Of a stretch of 64,000 nt of DNA, positions 2,707 through 63,353 are shown piece by piece (position 1 is the stretch's first letter; each line of letters starts with the position of its first letter). The position numbers were made by a program, and so were the translations under genes. The notes below the pieces were generated by a model that searched no databases, was not told the origin of the DNA, and saw only the letters and a list, made by a program, of their open reading frames with translations. Source of the stretch: a virus; the IMG/VR virus record IMGVR_UViG_3300021405_000007, positions 32,001 through 96,000 of that record; one strand, 5' to 3'.

Positions 2707-3456
2707 ATGAAACTTTGTTATATTTGCAAAATAAATGAAAGTCTTAATTCTAGTAGGTGCAAAACTTGCAATACTGAGTATTTCAAAAAATACAGAGAAA
2801 AGAATGAAAAGAAAATAAAAACCTACAAGAAAGAATATTATTATTTGGAATTTAAAGAATCGATTAATGATAAAAATCATAGATACTATGAAAAAAATAA
2901 AGAATCAGTTAACAAAAGAAATAAAGAATATTATACCAATAACAAAGAAAAAGTTAGAAAAATCAATGATCTTTGGATGGAAGAGAATAAAGAAAAAGTG
3001 ACTATTTATCAGGCGGCCTACCGAAAAGAAAATTCAGATAAAACAGCTTCTTATAATAAAAAATATAAAATTAAAAACAAAAAAGATTTAACTTTAAAAA
3101 GAAGAAATTATGAGAATAATAGACTTGCAAATGATCCTTTTTATCGAGTTAAAAAAAATATAAGGCGCTCGATCAATAGAGCTATTAAAACTTCGAATTG
3201 GCGTAAAACAAAAATTACAGAAATTATTTTGGGGTGCACCTTTTCAGCATTAGTCACCCATTTAAAAGTTACTTGGGAGAAAAACTACCCAGGAGAGATT
3301 TTAAACTGGAGTAAAAATGTTCATATAGATCATATAATTCCATTAGTTACTGCTAAGACTTTAAATGATGTTTATTTGTTGAACCATCATTCGAACCTTC
3401 AATTATTGAAAGCTTTTGATAATATTAAGAAAGGTGGCAAAGTTTTAAACCCCTAA
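2707..3456 (+). CDS. HNH-type (endonuclease VII-like) free-standing endonuclease
   Basis: N-terminal CxxC..CxxC, Lys/Tyr-rich helical repeats, C-terminal HIDHIIPL...NHHSNLQLL...DNIKK. Confidence 0.8.
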   Translation: MKLCYICKINESLNSSRCKTCNTEYFKKYREKNEKKIKTYKKEYYYLEFKESINDKNHRYYEKNKESVNKRNKEYYTNNKEKVRKINDLWMEENKEKVTIYQAAYRKENSDKTASYNKKYKIKNKKDLTLKRRNYENNRLANDPFYRVKKNIRRSINRAIKTSNWRKTKITEIILGCTFSALVTHLKVTWEKNYPGEILNWSKNVHIDHIIPLVTAKTLNDVYLLNHHSNLQLLKAFDNIKKGGKVLNP

Positions 3457-3481
3457 AGTTTCTTACACTCCCTACCGATAT
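3454..3481 (+). promoter_or_regulatory. sigma-28 (FliA/SigD)-type promoter
   Basis: TAAAGTTT-N12-ACCGATAT, about 30 nt upstream of ORF 3512. Confidence 0.75.
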
Positions 3482-3511
3482 ATCTAATATAAGTTAGAAA
3501 GGGAATAAAAC

Positions 3512-3754
3512 ATGAATAACAACAATACAATAGCAAAAATCCAAAAAGTAACAGTTTCAGGTTTAGAAATGTTTGAATACGTAGTTCTCCAATACCGAGA
3601 AATCGAAGTCCAATTGGAAGAGGCCGGTTTGATCATAGAACCAAGCGCAGGTTGGAAGGTATTAGGTGAGGGCAAACGATGGTCTATTGAAGCAGCTAGA
3701 GCGGTTGTGCAGAACTTAGCAAATAGTAATGTTTATTCCTTAATCATAAGGTAA
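3512..3754 (+). CDS. Hypothetical protein
   Basis: ATG with purine-rich RBS, downstream of a sigma-28 promoter. Confidence 0.6.
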   Translation: MNNNNTIAKIQKVTVSGLEMFEYVVLQYREIEVQLEEAGLIIEPSAGWKVLGEGKRWSIEAARAVVQNLANSNVYSLIIR

Positions 3755-3758
3755 ATTT

Positions 3759-4031
3759 ATGTACAAAATAACAGAAAAAGTATACAAGTCTGAAACAATT
3801 AAAAAATTCTTAAAAGAAACAAAGGATGATAAAACCATGCAAAACATAGACTTGGAAGTAGGAAGCTTGGAAACATTAGAAGTAGAAGAACTAAGGGATT
3901 TAGCAATCAGTCTCTTTCACAAGACTTTTGGGACTGGGAGATTAGACTGGGATGCTAGAACGTATCTTCATGAAATTAAAGAGTATTATTCTAGACAAGA
4001 TTTGATTGATTTTATTTACGCAGAAGGCTAA
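3759..4031 (+). CDS. Hypothetical protein
   Basis: 90-aa ORF tightly packed with neighbours. Confidence 0.55.
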   Translation: MYKITEKVYKSETIKKFLKETKDDKTMQNIDLEVGSLETLEVEELRDLAISLFHKTFGTGRLDWDARTYLHEIKEYYSRQDLIDFIYAEG

Positions 4032-4055
4032 AGTTTAATTAGAATATGCCGATAA
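4029..4055 (+). promoter_or_regulatory. sigma-28 (FliA)-type promoter, perfect consensus
   Basis: TAAAGTTT-N11-GCCGATAA, then AAGGAG RBS and ATG 4093. Confidence 0.88.
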
Positions 4056-4092
4056 AGAACTAAAGTGAGTTCTAAAAACTAAGGAGATAAAA

Positions 4093-8287: not shown

Positions 8288-9529
8288 ATGCTGAGGGGGT
8301 TTTTACAAAAAATACAGCGCTTTCTTCTGGTTTTTGGCCCCGGCTTGATTGTGCTTGAATGCGATAACGATTTCGGCGCAGTTTCCACATATACCCAGCT
8401 TGGTGCTCAATATGGTACCAACTTTCTTTGGATTCTACTTCTTTTACTACCTATATGCTACCTTTGCCAAGAAATGGTTGTTAGGTTAGGAATAGCCACC
8501 GGTAAAGGTCACGCCGTTCTTATATATGAAAAATTTGGAAAATGGTGGGGAAGGTATTCTTTCGGAACTCTTCAAATAGTCAACTTCTTGACAGTATTGA
8601 CCGAATTTATAGGAATAAAACTAGCCTCGGAAACTCTAGGTTTTGACCCTAAACTAGCAGTAGGTCTTTTTGCTATATGTTTAATAGCTTTAGTATTGAG
8701 CGGGAGTTATTTTGTATGGGAAAAGCTCACTATTCTTTTATGTCTCGCAGATGGGGTTTGGTTTTACTTAAGCAGCGAAATAGGCCCTCCAACCCATGAG
8801 AGCATAACAAACTCTTTCATCCCAAGTATGCCAATTGGAGGGATAACCCTCCCCCTCATATTTCTTTTAATAGCTACTGTAGGGACAACTATAGCTCCAT
8901 GGCAATTATTTTTCCAACAAAGTTGTGTAATAGATAAGAACTTGAAAGCTTCTGATCTGAATCATGAAAGGCTTGATACATTTTTGGCTAGTATTTTCAC
9001 TATATTAGTAGCCGGAGCTATGGTTTGCGTAGGGGTCGTCCTTTTTAGCAAAGGAATAACCTACGTCGATCCAGCACAAATGGCCGAGGTTTTGAAACCT
9101 CTAGCAGGGGATTTTATAAAGAAGCTTATTTTAATCATGATTATAAATGCCTCTGTTCTCGGAGCGATGGCGGTAACCCTTTCTAGTTCTTGGGCTTATT
9201 CTGAAGTAGTAAATTCGGCATCGGGATTAGGTAAAAAAATAACTGAAGCACCCCAGTTTTACGGGATGTATATCTTTGGGGTTTTGCTCGCAGCAGGAAT
9301 AGTGCTAATCCCACAATTACCATTACAGCTGGTGACCATAAGCGTGCAAGTCTTAGCGGGATTACTATTGCCCCCAGCTTTAATATTTTTGCATTTACTA
9401 TTGAATGATGAAAAATTTGTTCCCAAAGAGTTTTTAAATAAACGGTGGAACAATATCGCTAATATAATCGTGATTGGTTTGATGATTGTTTTATCTTTAG
9501 CTTTAATAGCAATACCCTTTTTCTCTTAA
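8288..9529 (+). CDS. NRAMP-family divalent metal transporter (NRMT/Mg2+-type subfamily)
   Basis: About 11 TM helices; GPGLIVLECDNDFGAVSTY, QEMVVRLG, GTTIAPWQLFFQQS; AAGGAG RBS before ATG 8288. Confidence 0.88.
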   Translation: MLRGFLQKIQRFLLVFGPGLIVLECDNDFGAVSTYTQLGAQYGTNFLWILLLLLPICYLCQEMVVRLGIATGKGHAVLIYEKFGKWWGRYSFGTLQIVNFLTVLTEFIGIKLASETLGFDPKLAVGLFAICLIALVLSGSYFVWEKLTILLCLADGVWFYLSSEIGPPTHESITNSFIPSMPIGGITLPLIFLLIATVGTTIAPWQLFFQQSCVIDKNLKASDLNHERLDTFLASIFTILVAGAMVCVGVVLFSKGITYVDPAQMAEVLKPLAGDFIKKLILIMIINASVLGAMAVTLSSSWAYSEVVNSASGLGKKITEAPQFYGMYIFGVLLAAGIVLIPQLPLQLVTISVQVLAGLLLPPALIFLHLLLNDEKFVPKEFLNKRWNNIANIIVIGLMIVLSLALIAIPFFS

Positions 9530-10251: not shown

Positions 10252-10857
10252 ATGCGTATAGCAGTAGTAGACTTAGAAAATAACACTCCCCAAAATGAAT
10301 GGCAAAAATCATTAACTGAACGAGTAGAATGGGCGCCCATAATTGAGATAGGCGCTGTAATGCTTGATATTAGATCAGGTAAAATAATTTCTTCTTTTGA
10401 AACCTTTGTAAATCCCAATGAAGCAATTTTTCCAGAAATCACTGCTTTAACAGGAATAAGTGATGTAGAAACAACGGGACCAAATTCGGGGTCTCTCGAT
10501 GTAGCTTTAGATAACTTTTATCAGTGGATGGCAGATAATAACTGTAAATTAATGGCTGCTTGGGGTAGAGATTGTGATGAAATTGAGAAGCAAGCTATTA
10601 AATCAGGAATAATCAATAAGTTTAAGAAATTAGACATTAAAAGTATGTTTGATGTTTTAAAAGGTGGTTTATCCGGAAAAAAAATGAAGGGCGGTTTAAA
10701 AGGGACTTTGGAAACCTTTGGTTTAACCTTTGAAGGGAAACAGCATAGAGCCAAAGTAGATGCTTTAAATACAGCAAAACTATTATTTCACGCTAAAGAA
10801 ATTTCACTTTACGCCGATAAGATTAAGGAACATAAGTTTAGAGGATTGCAGGAGTGA
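10252..10857 (+). CDS. DEDDh 3'-5' exonuclease (ERI-1/KapD-like)
   Basis: VVDLE, IIEIGAV, ITALTGI, AWG..D, HRAKVDA. Confidence 0.88.
   Translation: MRIAVVDLENNTPQNEWQKSLTERVEWAPIIEIGAVMLDIRSGKIISSFETFVNPNEAIFPEITALTGISDVETTGPNSGSLDVALDNFYQWMADNNCKLMAAWGRDCDEIEKQAIKSGIINKFKKLDIKSMFDVLKGGLSGKKMKGGLKGTLETFGLTFEGKQHRAKVDALNTAKLLFHAKEISLYADKIKEHKFRGLQE
10794..10820 (+). promoter_or_regulatory. sigma-28-type promoter inside the 3' end of the exonuclease gene
   Basis: TAAAGAAA-N11-GCCGATAA (TAAA-N15-GCCGATAA), upstream of ORF 10876 and def. Confidence 0.72.
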
Positions 10858-10875: not shown

Positions 10876-11073
10876 ATGAAAGTATACTGGAAGTGTTCAT
10901 GTGGCAAAGAAGGAAGTGAAATAGAAAAATCTTCTATCATAGGTATTACTGAATTTGGAGTTTGGTTCAACTGTGAATGTAAGTCTACTCATCTAATCCG
11001 ACCAGAAGCTATTGAAAAATCAGACTTTGATTGCCCTTTGATAAATAAAGTTAATAATGCAAATGACTTATAA
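10876..11073 (+). CDS. Small Cys-rich (zinc-binding?) protein
   Basis: CSCG...CECKSTH; GGAG RBS. Confidence 0.55.
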   Translation: MKVYWKCSCGKEGSEIEKSSIIGITEFGVWFNCECKSTHLIRPEAIEKSDFDCPLINKVNNANDL

Positions 11074-11536
11074 ACTTCAAAAACTTGGCGCACCCATCCT
11101 TCGAAAAAAAGTAGATAGAGTTTTAAAGTTCAAACCTAAAGAACTCGAACAACTTTTCGAAGAGATGGTTTATATTATGATCTTAAATCAAGGTATTGGG
11201 TTAGCCGCTAACCAAATAGGCCTTAATAAACAGATCTTTATAGCAGCTTTAGAAACTTCACAAGGTATAATAACTCCTCGAATGTTCATAAATCCAACAA
11301 TGTTCACACTCAGCGAACAAAAATATGAGGCTTTCGAAGAAGGTTGTTTATCAGTAAATAAAGATAAAAGAATTTCAGACTTCCGTTCTAACTCCTTATC
11401 TCTGCACTATCAAGATACTCACGGTTTAGTCAAAACAGAATCTTTTTCAGGATTCAATGCAGTTATTATCCAACATGAATGCGATCACCTAGAAGGTAAG
11501 CTCTTCATAGATTACACTAATCCACATAAATGTTAG
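11057..11536 (+). CDS. def: Peptide deformylase
   Basis: All three motifs present: GIGLAANQIG, EGCLS, QHECDHLEG. Confidence 0.95.
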   Translation: MQMTYKLQKLGAPILRKKVDRVLKFKPKELEQLFEEMVYIMILNQGIGLAANQIGLNKQIFIAALETSQGIITPRMFINPTMFTLSEQKYEAFEEGCLSVNKDKRISDFRSNSLSLHYQDTHGLVKTESFSGFNAVIIQHECDHLEGKLFIDYTNPHKC

Positions 11537-12621: not shown

Positions 12622-12649
12622 TAAAGATTTACAAAATAAACTCCGATAA
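12622..12649 (+). promoter_or_regulatory. sigma-28-type promoter
   Basis: TAAAGATT-N12-TCCGATAA. Confidence 0.65.
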
Positions 12650-12678
12650 GTATATTGTTCTTATCGGAGTTTATTTTT
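12633..12678 (+). terminator. 18-bp inverted repeat / terminator overlapping the sigma-28 -10 box
   Basis: AAAATAAACTCCGATAAG-N9-CTTATCGGAGTTTATTTT(T). Confidence 0.7.
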
Positions 12679-12693
12679 ATAGGAATGGTTTAT

Positions 12694-13151: not shown

Positions 13152-13160
13152 TGTTAAAAT
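13152..13160 (+). promoter_or_regulatory. Extended -10 (putative late) promoter
   Basis: TGTTAAAAT in intergenic DNA. Confidence 0.55.
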
Positions 13161-13567: not shown

Positions 13568-13577
13568 GGAATTTTCG

Positions 13578-19624: not shown

Positions 19625-19651
19625 TCTTCGGTAGATTTTTAAAAAACTTTA
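19625..19651 (-). promoter_or_regulatory. sigma-28-type promoter
   Basis: Reverse strand TAAAGTTT-N11-ACCGAAGA upstream of 19587. Confidence 0.65.
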
Positions 19652-19659: not shown

Positions 19660-19751
19660 TTGCATCTTTTGACAATAATCAGTAAACTATAATTAACTCA
19701 TTGAGGGTAGTATAGCTAACTCTTCAAGATTCTTACCAAATTTGGTAAAAT
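19660..19751 (+). promoter_or_regulatory. sigma-70-type promoter elements for the sigma gene
   Basis: TTGCAT-N17-TAAACT (19660-19688) and extended -10 TGGTAAAAT (19743-19751). Confidence 0.4.
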
Positions 19752-19785: not shown

Positions 19786-20976
19786 ATGCAAGATGACTTA
19801 GATATCGTCAACGAGAATGATATTCTTGTTATAGAGACGATAGTTTACAATGACAACTCTTCTTACGCTGAAGACAATTCTTCACCTTCCCTTAAAACCT
19901 ATATAAGACAACTATCTAAATTTCCACTTCTTACCCGAGAACAAGAACTTTCGCTCACGAGAAACCTCAAAAAGAACCGTGAGATCCTTTATTCAGCCTT
20001 TATGAAAACCCCAGAATGTCGTCTAGAACTTATGCAAATGCTCAACGCTAAGGTAGGTAGAGCTCGTAGAATGTTTGATCATATAGCAGAAGCTACCGAT
20101 GACGATGAGAAGGTTCTGAATCTTCAAGAAGAGCTAGCCAATGCCATAAAAGATAATAACTTCTCCAAGAAAAATCACAAGAATTTTCAGAACTTAGTTA
20201 TCCCTTTTAATGATTTTTATAGACTAGTTAATATTCTAAAAGCAAAAGAACTCACTCCTGAAGTCTCTAAAGCCCTCAATGAATACAACCAAATGAAGAA
20301 AAGGTTGTCAGAGTGTAATCTTCGTTTAGTCTTCGCTAGGGCTAAGAGATTTATGAATAGAGGCATGTCTTTAGAGGATCTTATCCAAGAGGGTAACGTG
20401 GGATTACTTAAGGCAATTGAGAAGTATAATCCAGAAAAAGGAAACAAATTCAGCACTTATGCTACTTGGTGGATTGATCAAGCTTTTGGCCGCGCTTTAG
20501 TGGACAAAAGTAAACTTGTACGTATCCCTGTACATATGGTTGATTCCATCAATAAAGTCAATAAAGCTTTTCAGACTCTTTCTGAGACTCTGACACATGA
20601 ACCTAGCAATGAAGAAATAGCAAAACTTACGGGACTAACTCTAGAGAAAGTTCGAAAAGTCAGAAACTCCATTATTCTAAAAGCTAAGTACCTTCAAGAA
20701 TTTCAAAATGATAAAGCTCTTCCTAAAATTATGGATTTTCCCGACGAGTCTAAAAATCCCGAAGAGCAACTCGAAGAGAAAGAATTAAGTGTTAAAGTAC
20801 GGGAATTTTTAGCAACTCTTTCGCCGCAAGAAGAAAAGATTTTAAGACTCAGGTTCGGAATTGGTGAAGCGAGAAGCTATGAAGTACAAGAAATAGCGAA
20901 CACTGTAAAATTAACACGTCAAAGAGTTTCTCAAATTCTCAATAAGACTAAGAAATTATGGGAATTTAAGGTATAA
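19786..20976 (+). CDS. Phage-encoded RpoD/SigA-like RNA polymerase sigma factor
   Basis: Region 1.2 YIRQLSKFPLLTREQE; region 2 NLRLV...DLIQEGNVGL.KA.EK...KFSTYATWWI; RIPVHM; region 4 LSPQEEKILRLRFGIGE...TRQRVSQI. Confidence 0.93.
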   Translation: MQDDLDIVNENDILVIETIVYNDNSSYAEDNSSPSLKTYIRQLSKFPLLTREQELSLTRNLKKNREILYSAFMKTPECRLELMQMLNAKVGRARRMFDHIAEATDDDEKVLNLQEELANAIKDNNFSKKNHKNFQNLVIPFNDFYRLVNILKAKELTPEVSKALNEYNQMKKRLSECNLRLVFARAKRFMNRGMSLEDLIQEGNVGLLKAIEKYNPEKGNKFSTYATWWIDQAFGRALVDKSKLVRIPVHMVDSINKVNKAFQTLSETLTHEPSNEEIAKLTGLTLEKVRKVRNSIILKAKYLQEFQNDKALPKIMDFPDESKNPEEQLEEKELSVKVREFLATLSPQEEKILRLRFGIGEARSYEVQEIANTVKLTRQRVSQILNKTKKLWEFKV

Positions 20977-22720: not shown

Positions 22721-22729
22721 TGATATAAT
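22721..22729 (+). promoter_or_regulatory. Extended -10 (putative late) promoter for the sheath operon
   Basis: TGATATAAT in intergenic DNA. Confidence 0.6.
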
Positions 22730-35489: not shown

Positions 35490-35517
35490 TCTTTGGAATT
35501 CTATTTAAAAAACTTTA
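35490..35517 (-). promoter_or_regulatory. Possible degenerate sigma-28 promoter
   Basis: TAAAGTTT-N12-TCCAAAGA upstream of the oxygenase RBS. Confidence 0.45.
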
Positions 35518-37129: not shown

Positions 37130-37341
37130 TTATTGTCCTTCTGTCATGGTTATAAGTGTTTTTTTTCATACTTACTTCTTTTTTTCTAAATTTGAAGGAA
37201 AATTGACCAAGGAAGCACCAAGAATAAGCGCAACCGCATAACTTGATAGTGCAGTAATCATAAAGCTATAAATCAATTTATCTTTCATTTTCATATTTCT
37301 TAGCCTCCATAAATACCTCTTCGGCATTTTTAAGGAAAACT

Positions 37342-37668
37342 TTAGCTCCAAATTATCGGAGGAGAACGACCCTCCCAACTATCAATTAACTCACAATACT
37401 TTAGCATTTGAATATTAAAGTCATAAGAAATACCTTCCACAACAGATAAATGAGCATCATCGAGTGACATTTCAAGTATCTTGATGTTTCGTTGACAATC
37501 ATAAAGTAATATGAATCCATCAACAGTGTAAAAAGTTTTAAGATATATATTTGATCTAGCGCCTATAAAGACATTTATATCAAAAATGGTATTAGAAAAA
37601 TATGCCAAAGATTTAGCTCCCACAAACACCCCCTTTTCCAATTTCACAGATATCAGCACTTTCTTCAA
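37342..37668 (-). CDS. Hypothetical protein (start uncertain)
   Basis: Fills the space downstream of the RNR gene. Confidence 0.35.
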   Translation of the reverse strand: MKKVLISVKLEKGVFVGAKSLAYFSNTIFDINVFIGARSNIYLKTFYTVDGFILLYDCQRNIKILEMSLDDAHLSVVEGISYDFNIQMLKYCELIDSWEGRSPPIIWS

Positions 37669-39304: not shown

Positions 39305-39313
39305 ATTTTATCA
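39305..39313 (-). promoter_or_regulatory. Extended -10 upstream of the RNR gene
   Basis: Reverse strand TGATAAAAT. Confidence 0.5.
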
Positions 39314-41979: not shown

Positions 41980-42007
41980 TTATCGGGGTTTGCACTAAAA
42001 ACCTTTA
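41980..42007 (-). promoter_or_regulatory. sigma-28-type promoter
   Basis: Reverse strand TAAAGGTT-N12-CCCGATAA upstream of 41946. Confidence 0.75.
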
Positions 42008-42052: not shown

Positions 42053-42061
42053 TGTTATAAT
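42053..42061 (+). promoter_or_regulatory. Extended -10 (putative late) promoter for the tail chaperone/tape measure operon
   Basis: TGTTATAAT. Confidence 0.6.
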
Positions 42062-48551: not shown

Positions 48552-48560
48552 TGTTAAAAT
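48552..48560 (+). promoter_or_regulatory. Extended -10 (putative late) promoter
   Basis: TGTTAAAAT before 48600. Confidence 0.6.
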
Positions 48561-51155: not shown

Positions 51156-54100
51156 ATGAGTATCATAACCTTAAAATCAGAGAATCAAATCTTAAGTGAT
51201 ATGATTGCTACAATATTTTCTCAAACAGGGTTGACCGATATAAATCCGGGGAGCGTTCTTTTAACTCTTTTAGAGGCTGCAGCTAGACAGGATTTTGCTC
51301 AATATTACCAACTTATGCAAGCAGTTAAGAATTATAACCTCGACACTACTACTGGTACAGACCTTGACAATAGAGCTTTTGAATATGGTTTAACTAGAAC
51401 TCAAGCTCAACAAGCTACCGGACAAGTGAACATCCTACGGCCTGCAGGTTTTGTAAAAATCAGTTCAGGATTCTTTGCTGGTTTTAGAGCACCGTTAGCC
51501 GGTGATACAGTTATTTATGTAAACGACGCTTCTGAATTTGGAAGCAGCGGAACTTTGATCATTGGTAGAGGTACTCCCGTAGAAGAAGAAGTGAATTTTT
51601 CTAGTGCTCCGGTTAATAATACTAATTATTGGACTGTTACCCTTTCCAGTTCTGTAACTAATAATCACAATACCAGTGAAGTAGTTATCCTTAGCCAAGG
51701 ATTTAACATAACTATAAATGCTGGGACTTTTGTTCAAGTCCCAGCAACCTCAAAGAATCCAGCGGTAGTATTTCAAACTACCCAAGAAGTCACGATTCTT
51801 GCCGGAGAAGCTGAGGTAGATGGTGTAGACGTTAGAGCTATTCAAGCTGGTGCAGCCGGTAATATACCAGTCAATGCAATTCCTGGAACTACTGATGCCT
51901 TCCCAACTCCCCCATTTACGGGAGCTCAAGCAGTAAATGTAGCAGCGTTTACAACTGGTTCCGATATGGAAACAGATACTCAACTTAGAAATAGAATTAA
52001 ACAATTTATCCAAGGGTTATCCCAATCTACAGCTAGTGGTATTTTCAATGCAATTCTTGGTTTAACCGATGCAGAGACCAGCAAAAGAGTAGTCTCTGCT
52101 AATATAGTTGAACCGACTAACCCTACAGACAATGTTAAAGTTTATATAGACGATGGTACCGGTTTTGAACCTTCTTTTAGTCTGCAGGGTCAAGAAACTA
52201 TTCTTGCTAGTGCTCAAGGTTTAGAAACTAGACTTCAATTAATGAATTTTCCTTTGGTTAAAGCTTTTGTTCAAACTATTAACGCAACACCTTATAATTT
52301 TACTACAAATGGTTTAACTTTAGAAATAGCTGTTGGTAACTCTTCTGAAACAATTGTTTTCAATAACCTAAACTTTCTAATTCCAGAAGCCGCCTCTGCG
52401 GATGAGATTGTAAATGAAATCAACAGTCAATCTACTTTGGTGGACGCTCGTACTGCTGATATAGGTACAACTGTATTTATAAGTGCTAAAGTTAGTACGA
52501 ATGAAGGTATACAAATCTTAGGTGGTACCGCTAATGCTATCCTGGACTTCCCTATTGACTTGCGTGAAACCTTTTATCTTTACAAAAATGATAGACTTTT
52601 ATCAAAAGATGGTGCTACTGCTTACGTAGATTCGGCTAGTACGACCTTTAACTTTTCTAGTGTTCCTGAAACTTTAGCGATAATAGTAGACGGCAAGTCA
52701 GCCAATCCACAAACAGTAACGTTTCAATTAGCGAACTTTTCTATTCCTTCACAAGCCACTCCTGAGGAAGTGGTGGCCGTTATAAATGCTCAACTTGCAG
52801 GAGCAACAGCCTCTGTGTTTAATAATAATACAGTAAGGTTGACTTCAAATACTACTTTGTCCTCCGCTTCTAAGATCCAAATTAACTCGTCTGCTGCCGC
52901 CACAACTTTAGGGTTTCCCTTAATGTTGGTGACTGGTGCTAACGATGATTATGTATTAAATGAGCAACTTGGGACTATTGGATTTAATTCACCGCTTTCT
53001 GCAGGAGATATGATAACCGCAGGAACTAGAAATACTAGAGGCTTCCTAACTGCTACCAATCCACAAAATTATACGGTGGGGGCGAGTACTACTTTATTGA
53101 TCAGTGTAGATGGTGGTTCTGTTCAAACCATTACGTTGCCTGCCCGAAGTGCAGCTTCTGCTTCCTTGATTGCAGGAGATATAAACGCCCAACTTCTTGG
53201 AGGGTTAGCAGTTACTAGAACTATCGGGAATAATGTTTATTTAGAAATCAGAACCAACTCTTATAATGCGACTTATGGTAGTATTGAAATTACCGGCGGC
53301 ACAGCTGTAAGCGTATTTGGTTTCCCTGTTAATAGCATTAACGATTCTATTCCGGCTCACGTAGCTTTTGTGGAAAACTCAAGTTTAGGTCCTTGGAGTT
53401 TTGACAGTGGTTGGACTCTGGTAGTGATTATAGATAATGATCCAATCGGAAAAACTTTTGTTATACCAATTGATTATGCTGGTCAAGTTACTAGTGGAAG
53501 TTCAACAACTATTTTTGCTGCCAGCGTTTTCTCAACTGTATTTCTTGTAAATAATATCTTAAATAATTTTTATGTTGTATTCAGAAGTGGTGCCAATACT
53601 ACTACTCAAACTATAAGTCAAGTCGATAGTGTCGGTGGTAATACCTACAAATATACTTTTAGTGCTTTACCTCCAAACTTCACTAACTTTGCCGTTGGTG
53701 ATGAGGTTACTTTTTCTAGCATGAAAAATGCTGATAATAACGGTAGTTTTTTAATTACTGCTATAAATTCCGGTTCTTCTCCTTATTGGGTCGAAATAAC
53801 AAATGCAGTGGGAAAAGTAGAAAGTGCTTCAACTGGAACTGGTTTGATCGGACAAAGACGCCAAGTAAGTGCTTATACAACCTCCACAGGACAGATCACT
53901 GTATCTTCTGCTTTTTCCCATACACCTTCTGCGAGTGACAATTTTGCAGTAATTCCTAGCACTAGTACTAACCTTTTGAATTTTTTGAATAATTTCAAAG
54001 TCACTTCTATATCTGCTTTGGCTACCATAGAAGCGGTAAATCAAAATAGATACTTACAAATCTCTTCAGATAACAATGGTTCAGATGGTTACATTCAGGT

Positions 54101-54563
54101 TGCCGGCGGAAAAGTTAATAACTTGGTGCAATTTTCAACTACCGAAGTTCAAGGGCATCAAGCGTACTCTTACTATACTGGGTTAACCAAACTAGTTCAT
54201 AAAACCATTTACGGTGATGAAACAGATTTAAGCTCATTCCCGGGTGTTGGGGCTGCAGGGGTGAGTTTTGAGGTCGCTGCACCAAGTACGGTTGAAGCTG
54301 AGTTTTCAATTCAAGTTAGTTTAGCACAAGGTTTGTCTTTGGCTACTTTAGAAAATGAGATCCAAAGTCAAATTATCTCATATGTTAATACTTTAGGAGT
54401 TGGGGATTCAGTAATACTCTCAAATATAGTTGAAAGAGTCTTGAACGGTGTGTCTGGCATCAACGATATAGTGATAACCTTTCCTACTTCTAACATTGAG
54501 GTTCTTCAAAATGAGGTTGCTAAAACTCAAGCCTCATTAATAAACGTGGAGCAAATTAACTAA
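51156..54563 (+). CDS. Baseplate J-like (gp6/gp47) protein with large insertions
   Basis: TD.NPGSV..TL.EA, G.DLD.RA..YGL.R, G..GN, G.D.ETD..LR.R; C-terminal YVN.L..G..V..S.I. Confidence 0.85.
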   Translation: MSIITLKSENQILSDMIATIFSQTGLTDINPGSVLLTLLEAAARQDFAQYYQLMQAVKNYNLDTTTGTDLDNRAFEYGLTRTQAQQATGQVNILRPAGFVKISSGFFAGFRAPLAGDTVIYVNDASEFGSSGTLIIGRGTPVEEEVNFSSAPVNNTNYWTVTLSSSVTNNHNTSEVVILSQGFNITINAGTFVQVPATSKNPAVVFQTTQEVTILAGEAEVDGVDVRAIQAGAAGNIPVNAIPGTTDAFPTPPFTGAQAVNVAAFTTGSDMETDTQLRNRIKQFIQGLSQSTASGIFNAILGLTDAETSKRVVSANIVEPTNPTDNVKVYIDDGTGFEPSFSLQGQETILASAQGLETRLQLMNFPLVKAFVQTINATPYNFTTNGLTLEIAVGNSSETIVFNNLNFLIPEAASADEIVNEINSQSTLVDARTADIGTTVFISAKVSTNEGIQILGGTANAILDFPIDLRETFYLYKNDRLLSKDGATAYVDSASTTFNFSSVPETLAIIVDGKSANPQTVTFQLANFSIPSQATPEEVVAVINAQLAGATASVFNNNTVRLTSNTTLSSASKIQINSSAAATTLGFPLMLVTGANDDYVLNEQLGTIGFNSPLSAGDMITAGTRNTRGFLTATNPQNYTVGASTTLLISVDGGSVQTITLPARSAASASLIAGDINAQLLGGLAVTRTIGNNVYLEIRTNSYNATYGSIEITGGTAVSVFGFPVNSINDSIPAHVAFVENSSLGPWSFDSGWTLVVIIDNDPIGKTFVIPIDYAGQVTSGSSTTIFAASVFSTVFLVNNILNNFYVVFRSGANTTTQTISQVDSVGGNTYKYTFSALPPNFTNFAVGDEVTFSSMKNADNNGSFLITAINSGSSPYWVEITNAVGKVESASTGTGLIGQRRQVSAYTTSTGQITVSSAFSHTPSASDNFAVIPSTSTNLLNFLNNFKVTSISALATIEAVNQNRYLQISSDNNGSDGYIQVAGGKVNNLVQFSTTEVQGHQAYSYYTGLTKLVHKTIYGDETDLSSFPGVGAAGVSFEVAAPSTVEAEFSIQVSLAQGLSLATLENEIQSQIISYVNTLGVGDSVILSNIVERVLNGVSGINDIVITFPTSNIEVLQNEVAKTQASLINVEQIN

Positions 54564-55873: not shown

Positions 55874-55882
55874 TGTTAAAAT
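55874..55882 (+). promoter_or_regulatory. Extended -10 (putative late) promoter
   Basis: TGTTAAAAT right after the wedge gene stop. Confidence 0.6.
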
Positions 55883-55920: not shown

Positions 55921-58900
55921 ATGGCAATTCTCCAAAGATTACTAGAACATAGCCAACAAAGATTTGATTTAGAAGATCTTAATACCATACTATCGGCGTT
56001 AAGATCAGACTCTAAATACTGGCAATTACTATTCAATGCTCAAACCTCCTATGTTGTGGCTGGTTTTGAAATAAGCTCAAGTTCTATAGGTCAAAGCAGC
56101 ATAAACATCGTTCTTGACTCCTCTATTCTTTTAAATCCCAATAACTCCACAGATTTTTCTTGGTTTGCAGGTTTTTCGGGCGCTTCCCCTATAAATGTAG
56201 GAATTGAAGCGGGCGCTCTCGTAATCGGTAGAAACTATGTAGAATTACAACTTAGTACCATAGATAGCGTGCCCCTTCAAAGGGCTTTTTGGGATCCTAC
56301 GGCCAATAGTGGTGCCGGCGGCGAGTTTCAGCAACAAGTAAATACGACTACAGAACTACAAGTACAAGTGGTTGTTAACCAAACTGCTTTTCATGTTTCA
56401 AATCCTGACTTAATTCCTTTGGCGATCGTTGATGTCAACAGTAGCGCCTTAATTTCTGGCATTTTAGATCAAAGGAACTTATTTTTTAGACTTGGAACCA
56501 AAGACACTCCTACTCTAGGTTGGACTTGGAATACTCAAATTGAACCCCCAACCACCCTCACCTTTGTAATGAATTCTAGCCCGGCCTTTGATGCCGGAGA
56601 AACCATAACCTTCACCAGTGGTGCTACTGCAGTTCTAGAAACTGGAGGCACTAATAATATTCAAGCTACCTCTTTCTCAGGTTTGAACTTCGCATTGGGT
56701 GATACCGTAACAGGGCTGACTTCTGGTGCGACTGGAACACTGCAATCCTTTTATGAATCTTTTGTTGGTGCAGATAAAGATATCCTAAATCTGAAAGAGA
56801 TGCTAAATGCTTTAATGACCGAAATTAGAACATTAAAGGGCACCCCTTACTGGTATTCACAAAGTGTAGCACCTACTACACCGGGATTGTTAGACTTTAT
56901 CAATACCATCCCTGTTCCGCTCACAGCTGGCGCAAAATATGAATGGGATGGTTCAAATTTAGCAATCAGCGATGCCGCAACGAGCGGTCAATCTTCTGCA
57001 GATCAAATAGCTGCTCTTAGAATTCCAGGGAAAAGCGGTACCTTTATTCTATCCCGCCAAGATGGAACAGTTAGTACTTCAGAGATAGCTATTGGTGATG
57101 GACAAATTTTATTCATAATCCTACCTTCTGATCTCACAACTTCCCGCACTTATTCTGGAATTGGTACTGCATCCACTAACTTTCAAGTTATTGCCAGAAA
57201 CAGTTTTGTAGCAACAGATAAAACTCATTGGTTAGCTTATAGGGAAGGTTCTAGGCTCATCACTCACGGTTTCGGTCAAATGGTCGCCGGCCAAGAGATG
57301 TCGATCGATGCTGGCGGAGGAGGCGGTGGTGGCGGAGTTCAAGAATTTATTCCATTCAGACTTTACGAAAATGTTCCGAATACCTCTGTATTAAATATTG
57401 GCCCATCCGTAAATACGGACGACGTTTCAGGTAAAAAATCCGCTGTTTCAAGAAATCCACCCAATACTTCTGATTTCTTGGGTGGGACAATCTCCTTCCC
57501 AACTACTTCAGGTAATAATGCAACACCTTCAGTTGGGTCAGCTGTTAGAATAGATATACAATCATCCTTCTATCTAAAAGTTTTAATCGCTGTTGATCTT
57601 AGTGGGAATATAGTGATAGTCCCCGGTGTTCAAGCATCTAGCCTTTCTGCAGCGAAACTACCAGCATTCCCTTATGGCGCATTTTCAATCGGGTATATAG
57701 TTTTAGTAAATACTGCTGGCGTTATAAGTTTAATTTCACAAACGAACATTTATCAGTTTGCCGACCTAGGGCATTTCGAAGACGGCAATAATGGTGGCGG
57801 AAACGTTTATAAAGAGGATGTTGACGTAGTTTCTAGCCCGAGTGGCAATGACCAAATGGCTCCAATTAGTTCGCCACCAGTAACAGTGACTATTCCTAAA
57901 GATACCAATCTGTATTTAGGAACTGGACTTGAAGCTCGAGTAACTAGTTCTTCTTCGACTGTTCAAGTTTCAAAGTCCAACCATGGTTTAACTACAGGTG
58001 ATTTAGTAACAATCATTACTGCTTCTGCAATTGGTGGGATAACTGGGGGAAACCTTTCTCAAACCGCAACAGCCTGTACTGTAATCGATTCGAATAATTT
58101 TTCTTATGTTGCAGGTGCTGCGGGCACTTACAATGACTACGGTACTTTAGATGCCACTTTCGCCAATACTACTAGACACTTTATAGTTGGTGATAGAACT
58201 CTGGTAGTTTATTTAAACGGTGTTGAACAAAGAAATGGTATTGATTATTCTGAGTTTGGCACATTTGGACTATCTTCTAATCAAATCATTTGGTTAACCA
58301 CTATTGTTGTGGGCGACTTAGTAACCTACGAAATAGTAAGGGTGGGTGGATTAACCATTCTTCAAAATGGTTCCCCAGTTGCGACAGGGACCTTACAAGA
58401 ATCTTATAATAATGGTCAATCAATAGTAACTGAGTCTGGTGCGCCGGTAGTTATTAGCGGCCCTAGCGGTCAAAAATTGCTGCACGTAGCTGGTAACGTT
58501 CAAATTGATGGCGTCATAGATCCAACCGCTATCACTTTTACCCCTCAATCTTCCAATCCTTTAAGTTCTGGTCAACAAGGTATTTGGTTTGATAGCTCCA
58601 ATGCTATGCATACTTATGATGGAACTACTGACACCAACACTAATGCTAGTTTTGTAAAAATAAATGGTTCAAATCCTTTTACCGGCCCTCAATCAATGGG
58701 GAGCAATAAGCTAACCAATGTAGCTACCCCAACAGTAAGTTCTGATGCAGCTACCAAAGGTTATGTTGATGGTCTGGCTATTAGTGCTTTGATTGGAGAT
58801 GTCAGTGGAACGGGCCCCGGATCAACCAGCACCACTGTTAATTCAGTTGGTGGTAGTTCTGCTAGTAACATACATTCGGCTGAACAAGCCGCTAATGCCG

Positions 58901-60579
58901 CAACCATCTTCCCAACAGCATCTACCATCTCAAAATGGGATGCACATATTAATCTAAGCGCTAATTCTTTTCTTTCTGGGTATGCAACCACAACTAGCTC
59001 TTTAACTCCTTTAGTTTTAACTGTTTCAAGTGCTTATAGGCAATATATCACAGGAAGTGTCGCTCAAACTGTAACTTTACCTATAGTTAGTACTTTAACT
59101 ATAGGTCAAGAATTTGAGATCGTTAATCTAGCGTCAACTTCTATAACCGTTGAATCTTCCGGATTGAATACCGTTCAAACAATGGCGGCTAATACAGTTG
59201 CTCGTTTTACTGCAATTTTGACGACCGGGACGACCGCAGCTTCATGGGCTGTTAAATATGGTTATTTATCGGGCGGTTCAGTAAACTCCGTCGCTTTATT
59301 TGATGCTAGTACAATTCCTATATATGGAGTTTCTGGAAGTCCGATCACGGCTGCAGGCACATTAGATTTAACTCTCGTCAATCAATCTGCTAATCAAGTG
59401 TTTGCAGGTCCTACAAGTGGGGGAGTAACCCAACCAGCATTTAGAGCTTTGGTAGCAACTGATATTCCAAGTCTCTCCAGCACTTATGTAACCCAAGCAG
59501 AGGTTGGTGCAGTAAGTGGTGTTGCCCCCTTAGATGTTTCTGGAAAAATTCCAATAGGTTACTTACCCTCCAGTGTATTTGAATACCAAGGTGCTTGGAA
59601 TCCTACAACTAACACTCCTACCTTAGTGGACGGAACTGGTCAATCTGGGTATACTTATTGGATTTCTGCAGCTTTTGCAGGCCCTATTTCTGGACTAAAT
59701 AACTCCTCAATGATCAACTTCCAAATTGGAGATTTGGTCATTTACAATGGTTCACAGTGGGAGCTTACGACTCCCGCAGCGGGTGTGACTTCAGTTAATG
59801 GCGCACAAGGAGCAGTAACGGTTAATGCTATTAGTCAGTTAACAGGGGATGTAACTGCGGGGCCAGCTTCGGGATCTGCTTCAGCCGCTGCTTCAGTGGC
59901 AAAAATTCAAGGAACTGTAGTAAGCGGCACCACGGGTAGTGGGAACGTAGTATTTTCTGCTTCTCCGGTTTTAACAACACCTACTATTACGATCAAAGAC
60001 AATGCATTAACCCTTGAAAATTCAACGGATACTACTAAACAAGCTTTATTTAGCTTAGTTGGCATCACGACGGGGCATACCACAACTTTAGCCGTTCCTG
60101 AAGTTAACGGCACTGACACCTTAGGTCTGATTGCTTTAGCTCAAAGCCCCACCAATAAAACCTTTGATGCTACCAGCTTTTTCCCAACGATCTCAGAACA
60201 AATGATAGCTGGACAAAGCTTCTCAGCTAATACGATATATGCTGTCAGACTTGGGCAAGGGGGGCAAAGTGAAACAGTCGGTAGAATTTATGCCGCAGAT
60301 CCAAGTGTTTCTGGCGGTGTGAACAACTATTTTGCAATCGGGTTGATATATCCAACTGGAGCGATCTCTGCAGGCGGTTCTGTAAATGTTGTAAAAATGG
60401 GCTTGATAAATGTGGGTGCCTCAACTTATACTTCTGGCCAAACTGGAACTCCCTTATATTTGACTACTTCTGGCGCTGTAACTTTGACTAATCCTGGTGC
60501 TACAGACGTTTTAACGATTAGAGTGGGGATAGTTAGAGATACTGCAAAAATAGAAGTTCAAATTTTAGGGTGGTATTAA
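55921..60579 (+). CDS. Large tail fibre/baseplate appendage protein
   Basis: 1552 aa; DAATKGYVD, VTSVNG..G.V, Y.G.WN...N.P.L fibre motifs; poly-Gly hinge. Confidence 0.75.
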   Translation: MAILQRLLEHSQQRFDLEDLNTILSALRSDSKYWQLLFNAQTSYVVAGFEISSSSIGQSSINIVLDSSILLNPNNSTDFSWFAGFSGASPINVGIEAGALVIGRNYVELQLSTIDSVPLQRAFWDPTANSGAGGEFQQQVNTTTELQVQVVVNQTAFHVSNPDLIPLAIVDVNSSALISGILDQRNLFFRLGTKDTPTLGWTWNTQIEPPTTLTFVMNSSPAFDAGETITFTSGATAVLETGGTNNIQATSFSGLNFALGDTVTGLTSGATGTLQSFYESFVGADKDILNLKEMLNALMTEIRTLKGTPYWYSQSVAPTTPGLLDFINTIPVPLTAGAKYEWDGSNLAISDAATSGQSSADQIAALRIPGKSGTFILSRQDGTVSTSEIAIGDGQILFIILPSDLTTSRTYSGIGTASTNFQVIARNSFVATDKTHWLAYREGSRLITHGFGQMVAGQEMSIDAGGGGGGGGVQEFIPFRLYENVPNTSVLNIGPSVNTDDVSGKKSAVSRNPPNTSDFLGGTISFPTTSGNNATPSVGSAVRIDIQSSFYLKVLIAVDLSGNIVIVPGVQASSLSAAKLPAFPYGAFSIGYIVLVNTAGVISLISQTNIYQFADLGHFEDGNNGGGNVYKEDVDVVSSPSGNDQMAPISSPPVTVTIPKDTNLYLGTGLEARVTSSSSTVQVSKSNHGLTTGDLVTIITASAIGGITGGNLSQTATACTVIDSNNFSYVAGAAGTYNDYGTLDATFANTTRHFIVGDRTLVVYLNGVEQRNGIDYSEFGTFGLSSNQIIWLTTIVVGDLVTYEIVRVGGLTILQNGSPVATGTLQESYNNGQSIVTESGAPVVISGPSGQKLLHVAGNVQIDGVIDPTAITFTPQSSNPLSSGQQGIWFDSSNAMHTYDGTTDTNTNASFVKINGSNPFTGPQSMGSNKLTNVATPTVSSDAATKGYVDGLAISALIGDVSGTGPGSTSTTVNSVGGSSASNIHSAEQAANAATIFPTASTISKWDAHINLSANSFLSGYATTTSSLTPLVLTVSSAYRQYITGSVAQTVTLPIVSTLTIGQEFEIVNLASTSITVESSGLNTVQTMAANTVARFTAILTTGTTAASWAVKYGYLSGGSVNSVALFDASTIPIYGVSGSPITAAGTLDLTLVNQSANQVFAGPTSGGVTQPAFRALVATDIPSLSSTYVTQAEVGAVSGVAPLDVSGKIPIGYLPSSVFEYQGAWNPTTNTPTLVDGTGQSGYTYWISAAFAGPISGLNNSSMINFQIGDLVIYNGSQWELTTPAAGVTSVNGAQGAVTVNAISQLTGDVTAGPASGSASAAASVAKIQGTVVSGTTGSGNVVFSASPVLTTPTITIKDNALTLENSTDTTKQALFSLVGITTGHTTTLAVPEVNGTDTLGLIALAQSPTNKTFDATSFFPTISEQMIAGQSFSANTIYAVRLGQGGQSETVGRIYAADPSVSGGVNNYFAIGLIYPTGAISAGGSVNVVKMGLINVGASTYTSGQTGTPLYLTTSGAVTLTNPGATDVLTIRVGIVRDTAKIEVQILGWY

Positions 60580-60590: not shown

Positions 60591-60599
60591 TGATAAAAT
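60591..60599 (+). promoter_or_regulatory. Extended -10 (putative late) promoter
   Basis: TGATAAAAT before 60623. Confidence 0.5.
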
Positions 60600-60622
60600 A
60601 TATAAAAATTAAGAGGATTTAG

Positions 60623-62590
60623 ATGTCAGCTTCATATACCCGCGTGGATTTACGTCAGACAATTGAGAGAGACCTTCTTCAATCAGCAACTGCTCAATCA
60701 GGTAGCTTAGGGGATTCTGTTGCAAGAGGTTTAGACAAAGAGGTAACCCGGCCGTATTACTTTACCGTAACGGGCTCCTCCAGAGTACTGACGGTTGCTG
60801 GTGCTGGCTTGATTACAAATGCTGAGAGTTCAGTTTCTCATGCAAACCCAGCCATTGTTGGCGTTGTTGATCCGCGCACAACTTCTTTCACAGTTACTTT
60901 TCCTTCGGCCAGTGCTGGAACTGCAACAAGTTCAATTACAATTGATTCGGGTTCAACTGTAACGGTTTCATCTAACAACTATATAAATGTAGGCGTAAAT
61001 CTTGCCCCTACTGGAAACATAGCTTTAACTTACGGCACCCAAAATACCGTAGCTGCTTCTGCTACTGCTCCAGCGATACCAGCGGGTTATTTAGGAATTG
61101 GCTACGTTCAACTATTTAATAATGCCGGAGCTATTGCTAATTTAGCTAACTCTTCTTTAGTACATTACCATGCTTCTCGCTACAGTGAATATCTAGCCAC
61201 AGTAAAAACTGTAGCAATTTCAGGTAGTACTACTTTAACGGACAATGCTCTTCACTTCGTTGATACTACAGTTGGAAGGTCTTTAACTTTACCGGCACCT
61301 TCAAAAAGTTCTTCTATCATAATAAAAGATTCTACTGGTAATGCAGGTACCAATAGCATTAGCATATTGCAGCATGCTTCTGAAAATATAGAAGGTGTTG
61401 CAGCTACTTACGTTTTCTCGGTAGGTAATGGTGCTCTCCATTTAACGAGCGATGGCACCAACTGGTTTATCACAGATTCTTGGGTGGGTGTTCCGGTTAG
61501 CACATCCCTAGCTCAGTTTAACGTACCGATAGGTAACTCAACTTCGATATATACTGCAACAAATACCAATCTTTTGGGTACTATATCAGCAAAAACATCT
61601 AGCGCAACTGTTACCATGACGAACGCGAATCCCGGCGTTGTAACTCAAACAGCGCACGGAGCTTCTACGGGTGACACTGTTTACTTCATGACGACCGGAG
61701 CATTGCCGACCAACGTACCAGCCTCTACGACTTTTTGGATAACTAAAATTGATGCTAACACTTACAATATATCCTCTAGTTTAGAGAACTTGTATGAAGG
61801 TGTGTACGTCAACACGACTTCGGGCGTACAATCAGGGGTTCAAACAGCGTTCTTGGGTGGTTTAACTTTAAAAAGCCTTCCTACTGCAAACCCTGCTGCT
61901 GCTGATGGCGCGGTAACGATGTCAATAGCAAGTGCTCCAGTTCAAGTAATAACCCCCACCGTCAATAGAACTTACACACTTCCTACGACCGGCGTTTTAG
62001 CTGGCATGAGTTATACTTTCATCAATAATTCAGCGGTAAGTCTTTCAGATATAAAGATTTTAGTTAATAGTTCAGCTGGCGGTTTGGTGAGAACTATATG
62101 GTCGCAAACATCGGCTAAGATAACAGCTTTAAAAGACACTCCCACACTATCGACTGACTGGATCTGCGAGACTCCTGCTATATCAAACTGGACAATTTTT
62201 AGTCCAGTGTTTACTGGTTTTGGGACGGTTAGTTCGTCAAACCTCTATTACCGTAGGTATGGTGATTCGATTCAAATAAGGGGCTCTTTCACTGCAGGTA
62301 CGGTAACCAGTGCTACCGCTAGTATTTCTTTACCAAACAGCTATACTTCTGCTTCAACTATGACGTCTGGAGACTTATCAGGGACTTGGACTCGAAGTGC
62401 CGCAGCGGGTGCAGCACAAGCTGATAACATAATACTGGGTGCTAGTGTGGGTACCTTTGCTTTCGCCTTTTTAACCACAGCTGCAGGGGGTTTAACTCCA
62501 CAAAATGGTAACGTGCTTATCGGAAATGGTGAAACTGTGAGTTTATTTCTGACGGCACCAATTTCGGGTTTTACAGCGGTTGGCGGATAA
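60623..62590 (+). CDS. Tail fibre protein
   Basis: LTLP.P.....I.IKD..G.A....I.I, SDGTNW; C-terminal YRR.GD.......F..G...ISLP domain. Confidence 0.75.
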   Translation: MSASYTRVDLRQTIERDLLQSATAQSGSLGDSVARGLDKEVTRPYYFTVTGSSRVLTVAGAGLITNAESSVSHANPAIVGVVDPRTTSFTVTFPSASAGTATSSITIDSGSTVTVSSNNYINVGVNLAPTGNIALTYGTQNTVAASATAPAIPAGYLGIGYVQLFNNAGAIANLANSSLVHYHASRYSEYLATVKTVAISGSTTLTDNALHFVDTTVGRSLTLPAPSKSSSIIIKDSTGNAGTNSISILQHASENIEGVAATYVFSVGNGALHLTSDGTNWFITDSWVGVPVSTSLAQFNVPIGNSTSIYTATNTNLLGTISAKTSSATVTMTNANPGVVTQTAHGASTGDTVYFMTTGALPTNVPASTTFWITKIDANTYNISSSLENLYEGVYVNTTSGVQSGVQTAFLGGLTLKSLPTANPAAADGAVTMSIASAPVQVITPTVNRTYTLPTTGVLAGMSYTFINNSAVSLSDIKILVNSSAGGLVRTIWSQTSAKITALKDTPTLSTDWICETPAISNWTIFSPVFTGFGTVSSSNLYYRRYGDSIQIRGSFTAGTVTSATASISLPNSYTSASTMTSGDLSGTWTRSAAAGAAQADNIILGASVGTFAFAFLTTAAGGLTPQNGNVLIGNGETVSLFLTAPISGFTAVGG

Positions 62591-62974
62591 TGAAAAAGGT
62601 TGATTATAAAACCCACAATAAAGATCTCATCGAACGAATGAAGAAAGGTGAATCTTTACTAAAGTACGATACTGGAGCAAGTTGGTACCCTGTTAGGCCT
62701 GTAATAAAAAAAGATGTGAACGCCATCAAAAAGTTGTATGATAAAAAAGAAGTAGATGAGGAGATTGTAATAGATGGTGAAACTAGAGGAAGTTAAAGAA
62801 ACTCAGAAAATAATAAAGAGACGAGCTCCTGCTCCGAGTCTTTATGATTTAACTCCTAAATTAATGGAAAAACTTGAAATTAAATCTCCTTCCGAACTAT
62901 TTTTTATTATAGATAGACTTAGATATTTATGGGTTCAAGATAAATTATCTACTTATGAGTTTCCAGAAGAATAG
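62590..62974 (+). CDS. Two small hypothetical proteins (62590..62796, 62774..62974)
   Basis: Overlapping ORFs after the tail fibre gene. Confidence 0.45.
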
Positions 62975-63073
62975 ATTTTTTTGCGACAACAAGTCAATTA
63001 TTCCCTTTAATATTAGGTTGATATAACTACTATATGTTGCCCGTTTCTATTTTTACCTTCGACAACATAGCGA

Positions 63074-63283
63074 CTACTCAAAGTTAAAACCCAAATCCCT
63101 CATCCACTTGGTGGGAGCCTTAAGTCCCACCACTGCATAAACATCTGTAAATAACGACAAAACTTCTTGATCGGTATATTTTGGGACGTTTGACTGTACT
63201 TGCAAGCCATATGCCAAAAATTTGTCTTTATATACTGGTATTTGCGCTTCTTGTTCTGGGGTTAGGGTTTCTAAAACTGTCAT
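63074..63283 (-). CDS. Short/truncated protein with DUF6745-protein-like N-terminus
   Basis: LTPEQEAQIP.Y..K....GL...Y...GL..P; AAGGA RBS. Confidence 0.45.
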   Translation of the reverse strand: MTVLETLTPEQEAQIPVYKDKFLAYGLQVQSNVPKYTDQEVLSLFTDVYAVVGLKAPTKWMRDLGFNFE

Positions 63284-63326
63284 ATTAATTCCTTTTGTTA
63301 AGTCTCTCTTTACTCTCTTGAACTAC

Positions 63327-63353
63327 CTATCGGCATATTTATGAAAAACTTTA
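63327..63353 (-). promoter_or_regulatory. sigma-28-type promoter
   Basis: Reverse strand TAAAGTTT-N11-GCCGATAG upstream of 63283. Confidence 0.85.

Follow-up and report, generated by a model that had tools for sequence, protein, structure and literature searches.

Sigma-28-type and extended -10 promoter sequences divide the genes of an uncultured myovirus by function

Introduction

Which form of RNA polymerase would transcribe the non-virion genes of a large uncultured phage? The question is raised by a 64,000-nucleotide (nt) stretch of viral DNA, positions 32001-96000 of the 108,106-bp virus record IMGVR_UViG_3300021405_000007 (estimated completeness 93%), hereafter the window, which belongs to an uncultured tailed phage, a myovirus of ~108 kb. 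Textbook phage programmes begin with the housekeeping sigma factor of the host. A preliminary description of the window had nevertheless noticed, upstream of accessory gene cassettes, a two-box motif resembling the promoters of the flagellar sigma factor sigma-28 (FliA/SigD), and had proposed that early expression is keyed to the motility sigma of a host such as Bdellovibrio. In the present study we analyse this motif, which we call class A, over the whole genome together with a second promoter class, class B, the sigma factor encoded by the phage and the distribution of all three among related and unrelated viruses. Coordinates refer to the window unless they are given as genome positions, which refer to the complete record.

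Results

The class A motif can be written as cTAAAGTTT-N11/12-(G/A)CCGA(T/A)A(A/G). In order to avoid circularity, the whole 108-kb genome was scanned with an untrained regular expression drawn solely from the textbook consensus, TAAAG-N14-16-CCGA[TA]A, which gave 10 matches against 0.53 in shuffled sequences and none in the reversed control. Of the ten, eight fall in intergenic DNA, which makes up 12% of the genome, and all are sense-oriented and lie no more than 150 nt from a start codon (p ~9e-11). The stricter pattern of the preliminary description matches three times in the window against 0.08 expected, and an unbiased k-mer scan of the upstream regions places GCCGAT, TGCCGA, CCGATA and TAAAGTTT at or near the top. 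A position weight matrix (PWM) trained on the phage sites finds 16 sites of at least 16 bits in the genome (1.0 in shuffles) and also picks sites absent from its training set, all of them preceding genes (genome 97123-, 100441-, 104600- and 67517-). In all, ~14 copies of class A are recognised by PWM. What had first been noticed in the window, a motif upstream of genes and in their sense, holds genome-wide against the shuffled control.

The seven strong sites of the preliminary description are all present, with PWM scores of 22-28 bits. The best of the whole genome (28.1 bits) is TAAAGTTT-N11-GCCGATAG at 63327..63353 on the minus strand, with the ATG of a 69-amino-acid (aa) unknown gene 43 nt further on at 63283. 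The perfect consensus TAAAGTTT-N11-GCCGATAA is found at 4029..4055 on the plus strand (27.3 bits), 37 nt before the ATG at 4093 of a 190-aa unknown gene that is followed by small genes, and TAAAGTTT-N12-ACCGATAT at 3454..3481 (plus, 22.9 bits) stands 30 nt before the ATG at 3512, ahead of two unknown genes of 80 and 90 aa. The plus-strand site TAAAGAAA-N11-GCCGATAA (10794..10820, 24.3 bits) lies within the 3' end of the open reading frame (ORF) 10252-10857 and stands at the head of a 65-aa ORF and of the gene for peptide deformylase (11057-11536). Small minus-strand genes are headed by TAAAGTTT-N11-ACCGAAGA at 19625..19651 (minus, 24.9 bits), which is divergent from the sigma gene and precedes 19420-19587 and 19182-19355, and by TAAAGGTT-N12-CCCGATAA at 41980..42007 (minus, 26.1 bits), which faces away from the neighbouring class B promoter of the baseplate module and precedes the genes from 41497-41946 through 40929-41336. 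A further site missing from the original list, TAAAGTTT-N11-GCCGAAGA at 37318..37344 on the minus strand (26.6 bits), heads a membrane-like ORF of ~40 aa and a block ending in the thymidylate synthase gene (35528-36232). Outside the window, class A sites are located at genome 114+, 5768+, 97123-, 100441-, 104600- and 105069+.

Three of the listed sites call for comment. The class A-like site TAAAGATT-N12-TCCGATAA at 12622..12649 (plus, 22.6 bits) is ambiguous between promoter and terminator, since its CCGATAAG box doubles as the 5' arm of a perfect 13-bp hairpin (AAACTCCGATAAG ... CTTATCGGAGTTT) followed by a run of T (12630-12680); this hairpin may terminate the upstream gene, start the next one, or both. 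Of the two sites reported as weaker, TAAAGTTT-N12-TCCAAAGA at 35490..35517 (minus, genome 67517-) is indeed a weak class A-like sequence of 15.0 bits, 20 nt before the gene 34480-35469. The other, 39342-39349 on the plus strand, is not supported as a class A site: it consists of a -10-like box alone, the TAAAG expected at the proper spacing being absent, and its PWM score is below 10.

The sigma-28 open complex of Pseudomonas aeruginosa provides the rules with which class A can be compared. There, the fliC promoter has the -35 element TCTAAAG (-36 to -30) and the -10 element GCCGATAA (-15 to -8), the sole flipped base is -11A, and position -7 is neither flipped nor conserved; sigma-70 depends on a T at -7 that is flipped and accommodated in a pocket of region 1.2, a region that group 3 sigma factors lack (PMC12784957). 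The boxes of class A, CTAAAG and GCCGATAA, and their gap of 14-15 nt are those of this fliC promoter, in which 14 nt separate TAAAG from GCCGATAA. All 11 seed sites contain TAAAG unchanged, eight of them with a C before it, and the -10 box (G/A)CCGA(T/A)A(A/G), including its GC "extended" part, is found in all strong sites. When 35 class A sites from three genomes are compared, 23 have a C before TAAAG, the gap to the -10 box is 14 nt in 19, 15 nt in 15 and 13 nt in one, and the base at -7 is G in 22, A in nine, C in two and T in two. Conversely, the PWM recognises the boxes upstream of fliC (20.0 bits), fliD (16.2 bits) and fliA (11.4 bits) of Escherichia coli K-12, which we take to be genuine sigma-28 promoters, with a single other match of at least 9 bits in the ~9 kb of E. 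coli DNA scanned. Most class A sites are nearer to the consensus than these three promoters, on the scale of a PWM that was trained on phage sites. In four large cultured phages, whose head proteins are distant relatives, class A matches occur at chance level (3 against 6 in the control), and a 30-nt blastn search of one promoter against cultured phages likewise retrieved chance-level matches only.

Judged from these comparisons, class A is a class of putative promoters that agrees with sigma-28 promoters in every sequence criterion tested; both boxes, the gap, the non-T base at -7 and the recognition of E. coli sites all bear out the initial identification of the motif as the FliA/SigD consensus. 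Class A resembles the class 3 flagellar promoters (targets of FliA in E. coli, Salmonella and Pseudomonas, and of SigD in B. subtilis) in its -35 and -10 elements, its gap and its unconserved -7, but differs from them in residing on a phage genome and in preceding replication, nucleotide-metabolism, deformylase and ORFan genes instead of flagellar and chemotaxis genes.

By reading all the intergenic regions a second class was found, class B, with the extended -10 sequence TG(T/G/A/C)TA(A/T)AAT. No conserved -35 element accompanies it in this genome (g0) or in two relatives, G001 and G002; a -35 element covarying with region 4.2 of each phage sigma was considered and rejected, because no such element exists. 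Class B precedes the virion genes, namely the portal, the head, the adaptor blocks, the sheath, the baseplate module and proteins of 845, 1552 and 655 aa, and also the sigma gene and the ribonucleotide reductase gene. On the plus strand, TGTTAAAAT occurs at 13152..13160 before the head-tail adaptor block (13256-14882; conserved in G001), at 48552..48560 before the 845-aa baseplate protein (48600-51137; kept as TGATATAAT in G001 and as TGCTATAAT in a third relative, G006) and at 55874..55882 before the 1552-aa tail protein (55921-60579; conserved in G001). The same strand carries TGATATAAT at 22721..22729 before the tail sheath block (sheath at 23043-25190; conserved in G001 and G006), TGTTATAAT at 42053..42061 at the head of the baseplate/tail module (42113 onward; the same at the G001 ortholog) and TGGTAAAAT at 19743..19751, 35 nt before the sigma gene. 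A class B-type sequence, TGATAAAAT, lies on the minus strand at 39305..39313 before the ribonucleotide reductase gene (37613-39250, minus), and TGATATAAT is found upstream of its G001 ortholog.

No virion block is headed by class A, whose sites stand before the replication arm (genome 114), a homing endonuclease gene (genome 5768), the operon with the deformylase gene, the blocks containing thymidylate synthase and dUTPase, and many small ORFans. The two promoter classes split the genes of this phage by function, class A being non-virion and class B virion. The preliminary description had assigned the motif to "accessory genes"; accessory and small genes are indeed among those headed, but the term is too narrow, since class A also heads replication and nucleotide-metabolism genes. 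Canonical two-hexamer sigma-70 sites occur in the accessory region at chance level (58 against 60.9), which rules them out as the main signal of that region. Class B is like the known extended -10 promoters (TGnTATAAT), which do not need a -35 element; it differs from them in being used systematically for virion genes and in being conserved at orthologous positions in three diverged phages, one of which is devoid of a sigma gene.

At three places the two classes stand back to back, class A on the minus and class B on the plus strand, 18-92 nt apart (19625-19751 and 41980-42061 in the window, and genome 97097-97149), an arrangement that suggests possible competition or coupling between two forms of the polymerase. 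Within the replication arm, the GIY-YIG-type homing endonuclease gene (genome 5768-6672) has its own class A promoter; this mobile element may have arrived with a promoter of the class used by the phage, or have picked one up.

The preliminary description had warned that a FliA-like sigma encoded by the phage would turn the interpretation into one of self-driven transcription. A sigma gene is in fact present inside the window, at 19786..20976 on the plus strand, and its 396-400-aa product, the sole sigma of the genome, contains regions 1.2, 2, 3 and 4, with the Pfam r1_2 (PF00140), r2, r3 and r4 models all above cut-off. It is RpoD-like: the closest solved relatives are RpoD/SigA (E 1e-52), and the scores are 240.5 bits (cut-off 555) with PRK05658 and 220 bits (cut-off 354) with RpoD_Cterm, against 110.3 bits (cut-off 189.6) with the FliA_WhiG model TIGR02479, so that the protein falls under every curated NCBIfam cut-off, RpoD and FliA_WhiG alike. 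In an alignment with E. coli RpoD, E. coli FliA and nine clade members from a large protein database, its region 2.4 is unlike that of FliA, and the clade retains FSTYATWWI and the region 3.0 motif PVHM(V/L)(D/E), which reads the extended -10. Regions 2.3-2.4 and 3.0 are thus of the sigma-70 type, and the -10 reader is retained as well. From its sequence, the protein is best assigned to a divergent, RpoD-like phage clade and not to the FliA/WhiG family.

The -35 recognition helix varies in nearly every one of the 12 clade members compared (RQRVSQ, KQRVSK, KQRVAR, RERIRQ, REWARQ, PQNVHS, RENVRQ and KERVQQ), while TAAAG is invariant. A -35 reader that varies so freely fits class B, which has no -35 element, and not the constant TAAAG of class A. 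Furthermore, class B carries the A and the T that sigma-70 needs, and the phage sigma carries region 1.2. Searches of the genome for a second sigma, a FlgM anti-sigma or a region 4 of the extracytoplasmic function type found none, and a hidden second sigma or FlgM was rejected accordingly.

The sigma gene itself is preceded in G001 and G002 by a housekeeping-type promoter, TTGACA-N17-TAAGGT or TTGACA-N17-TAGTAT. In this phage, TTGACA and TATAAT occur before the gene at 19669-19694, 13 nt apart, a spacing that is non-functional for sigma-70, and control of the gene seems to have shifted from the housekeeping to the class B type. An identical sigma protein (P0001) is recorded on a 202.5-kb contig, nearly twice the length of this genome, which may represent an assembled concatemer or else a wider context, for instance a contig of the host, and a 57%-identical sigma is found on an 89.6-kb NCBI contig.

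Relatives of the phage allow the sigma gene and the promoter classes to be considered separately. In G001 (108,914 bp, with terminal repeats) homology extends to 62 of 140 proteins, and the sigma is 37% identical; this genome contains 15 class A matches against 2 in the control, 13 of them intergenic, and class B at the orthologous virion genes. Class A is conserved in G001, G002 and G006. The last of these is a complete, more distant relative (117,954 bp, with terminal repeats) with 31 shared core proteins, a head protein 37-40% identical and a syntenic virion module, and no sigma was detected in it, either at the syntenic slot or elsewhere (best tblastn E 0.81). Four strong class A sites nevertheless occur in intergenic DNA of G006, and the CCGATAAGTATTA context known from G001 recurs at two of them (85989 and 86319). 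As in this phage, class B is found there ahead of the baseplate ortholog and of a small ORF that immediately precedes the sheath gene. Thus, the phage sigma is dispensable for either class, and in G006 both must be read by host factors. The RpoD-like character of the phage sigma and the retention of class A in a sigma-less relative disfavour self-driven transcription.

In G001 (L086; 14321, 14741, 17959 and 18425) and in G006 (85989 and 86319) a conserved AGTAwTATGTAAGT comes after the -10 box of class A and is predicted to comprise the start site and leader; in this phage conservation after the box is weaker (G, then often TA). An attempt to correlate sigma with motif among terminase relatives yielded two close ones, G001 and a fragment of 6.9 kb, and otherwise two partial matches that were weak.

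Class A is not confined to this lineage. A scan of the viral collection with the perfect 16-base consensus gave many contigs with 2-4 copies, and 12 other motif-rich viral contigs show, with the relaxed pattern, 85 matches against 5 in the control and a strong strand bias. Ten of the 12 have no detectable head-protein similarity to this phage, and 11 of the 12, including three complete genomes, gave no match to Sigma70_r2. In three unrelated viruses of this set (G008, G010 and G012) TTGACA is located inside the class A spacer (e.g. TAAAGTTTGCTCTTGACAATGCCGATA), so that sigma-70 and sigma-28 boxes are interleaved, an arrangement not found in this phage.

As to the genome that carries these promoters, the final 126 nt of the record (genome 107981-108106) are an exact repeat of positions 3-128, which indicates that the "linear" record closes on itself, whether through circular permutation or through terminal redundancy, and can be regarded as essentially complete; the junction formed by the repeat is spanned by the class A site at genome 114. 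The GC content is ~37% and strong Shine-Dalgarno sites precede the genes. PHROGs matches identify the major head protein (1179-2588), the tail sheath, the baseplate proteins (48600-54563), the terminase and the portal, and in the replication arm GroEL, an exonuclease, ParB, a helicase-primase, a DNA polymerase, a RecA-like protein and SbcCD. GroEL (genome 1176-2774) is common to G001 and G006, and an Nramp metal transporter (8288-9529) to G001. There are 3-4 paralogs of a ClpP-like "head maturation protease" (genome 26419-31505 and 97261-97881), and no tRNA genes were found in the genome. No relative at the nucleotide level was found among cultured phages; by head protein, the cultured relatives are Bacillus SPO1-like and Bacteroides DAC phages with 28-30% identity only. 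The closest Nramp matches, ~57% identical, are scattered across soil Bacteroidota and Acidobacteriota. Neither these matches nor the head-protein relatives lend support to the suggestion of Bdellovibrio as the host.

Discussion

We consider it probable, on the strength of sequence comparisons, that class A is read by the host's presumed FliA/SigD-type sigma and class B by sigma-70-type factors, the RpoD-like sigma of the phage serving as a later reinforcement. In this mechanism the host RNA polymerase with the host's own FliA/SigD-type sigma would transcribe the non-virion programme, and transcripts are predicted to begin ~8 nt past the final A of GCCGATAA. Class B would be read by the host housekeeping sigma and, in this phage, probably also by the phage's own RpoD-like sigma. 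We infer which protein reads which class, the early or late timing of each and any link to host motility. Of the original proposal that early expression is keyed to the host motility sigma, the reader stands as the best-supported explanation, given the agreement with the sigma-28 rules and the sigma-less relative, while the term "early" would follow from gene content alone.

Several observations weigh against this assignment. Within the sigma-bearing lineage, sigma and class A are always found together (three closest genomes). The phage sigma clade carries throughout the changes R436D and T440G (E. coli numbering) in region 2.4, in residues responsible for reading the upstream end of the -10 element, and region 4.2 of the sigma of this phage has RVSQ, as in E. 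coli FliA. The failure to match Sigma70_r2 in the motif-rich contigs is compatible with a very divergent phage sigma. Finally, if the host sigma-70 reads class B, as G006 implies, a delay of the virion genes would call for an explanation.

The first three of these points would favour the phage's own sigma as the reader of class A. According to this alternative, which we regard as unlikely, the host housekeeping sigma transcribes the sigma gene, as the canonical promoters before it in G001 and G002 would allow, and the new sigma, with its altered readers of -12/-13 and -35, then activates class A as middle genes, no host flagellar sigma being involved. However, class A persists in the sigma-less G006 and in the 11 contigs in which no sigma was matched, and TAAAG does not change while the -35 helix does across the clade. 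A protein with region 1.2 and sigma-70-type melting residues would need a T at -7, which is present in class B but in only two of the 35 class A sites, and the exact match to the bacterial sigma-28 consensus would demand convergence.

A slightly less likely candidate is an unrecognised phage factor common to these viruses, either a divergent small sigma or an appropriation pair like MotA/AsiA of T4. Phage sigmas such as T4 gp55 are missed by ordinary profile searches, most of the genes behind class A are small ORFans with no family match, and an 86-aa ORF of G006 gives a sub-threshold match resembling region 4. Nevertheless, early genes cannot await a factor that has itself yet to be made, unless it is injected with the DNA, and the boxes equal the cellular sigma-28 consensus in detail. 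The same boxes and spacing in phages whose head proteins show no detectable similarity to that of this phage point to a conserved cellular reader. That class A is not a promoter at all but a regulator binding site, part of a terminator or a compositional artefact, as the hairpin overlapping 12622-12649 might suggest, is very improbable in view of the 20-fold excess over shuffles, the sense orientation of 10 out of 10 sites with nine of them 20-65 nt and one 188 nt before starts, the fixed spacing of the two boxes, their conservation in G001, G002 and G006, the recognition of sigma-28-type boxes in front of fliC, fliD and fliA of E. coli and the chance-level counts in control phages.

With a host sigma-28 as the preferred reader of class A, the phage can be set beside the known phages that part non-virion from virion genes by means of promoter classes and a sigma of their own, SPO1 (gp28, gp33/34), T4 (gp55) and phiEco32/7-11 (gp36), to the first of which its head protein is distantly related (28-30% identity). 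In those phages, the early promoters use the host housekeeping sigma and their own sigmas are small and divergent (PMC13401047, PMC8948821). In this phage, by contrast, the non-virion class resembles the promoters of a host alternative sigma, and the sigma it encodes is nearly full-length, RpoD-like and likely directed to ordinary extended -10 promoters. At the level of titles and abstracts, no report of phage promoters read by a host sigma-28 was found in the literature.

A broader proposal, which we advance tentatively and with somewhat less than even confidence, is that many mostly unrelated uncultured tailed phages, those of this lineage among them, place their whole pre-virion programme under the host flagellar sigma. 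Infection would then be gated by the motility state of the cell through the FlgM checkpoint, perhaps in connection with flagellar adsorption, and the RpoD-like sigma would be a later addition that boosts the extended -10 promoters of the virion genes in this lineage. The comparative set assembled here, with sigma-bearing and sigma-less relatives and a dozen motif-rich contigs, makes the question of the reader directly testable. If host sigma-28 is the reader, replication and takeover genes would be tied to a sigma that is active only after completion of the flagellar basal body, and hosts of uncultured phages with class A should have FliA, which would aid host prediction. This would represent a new way for a virus to sense the physiology of its host, and it would bear on how phages deal with motile, sessile and biofilm cells and on dormancy in non-motile hosts.

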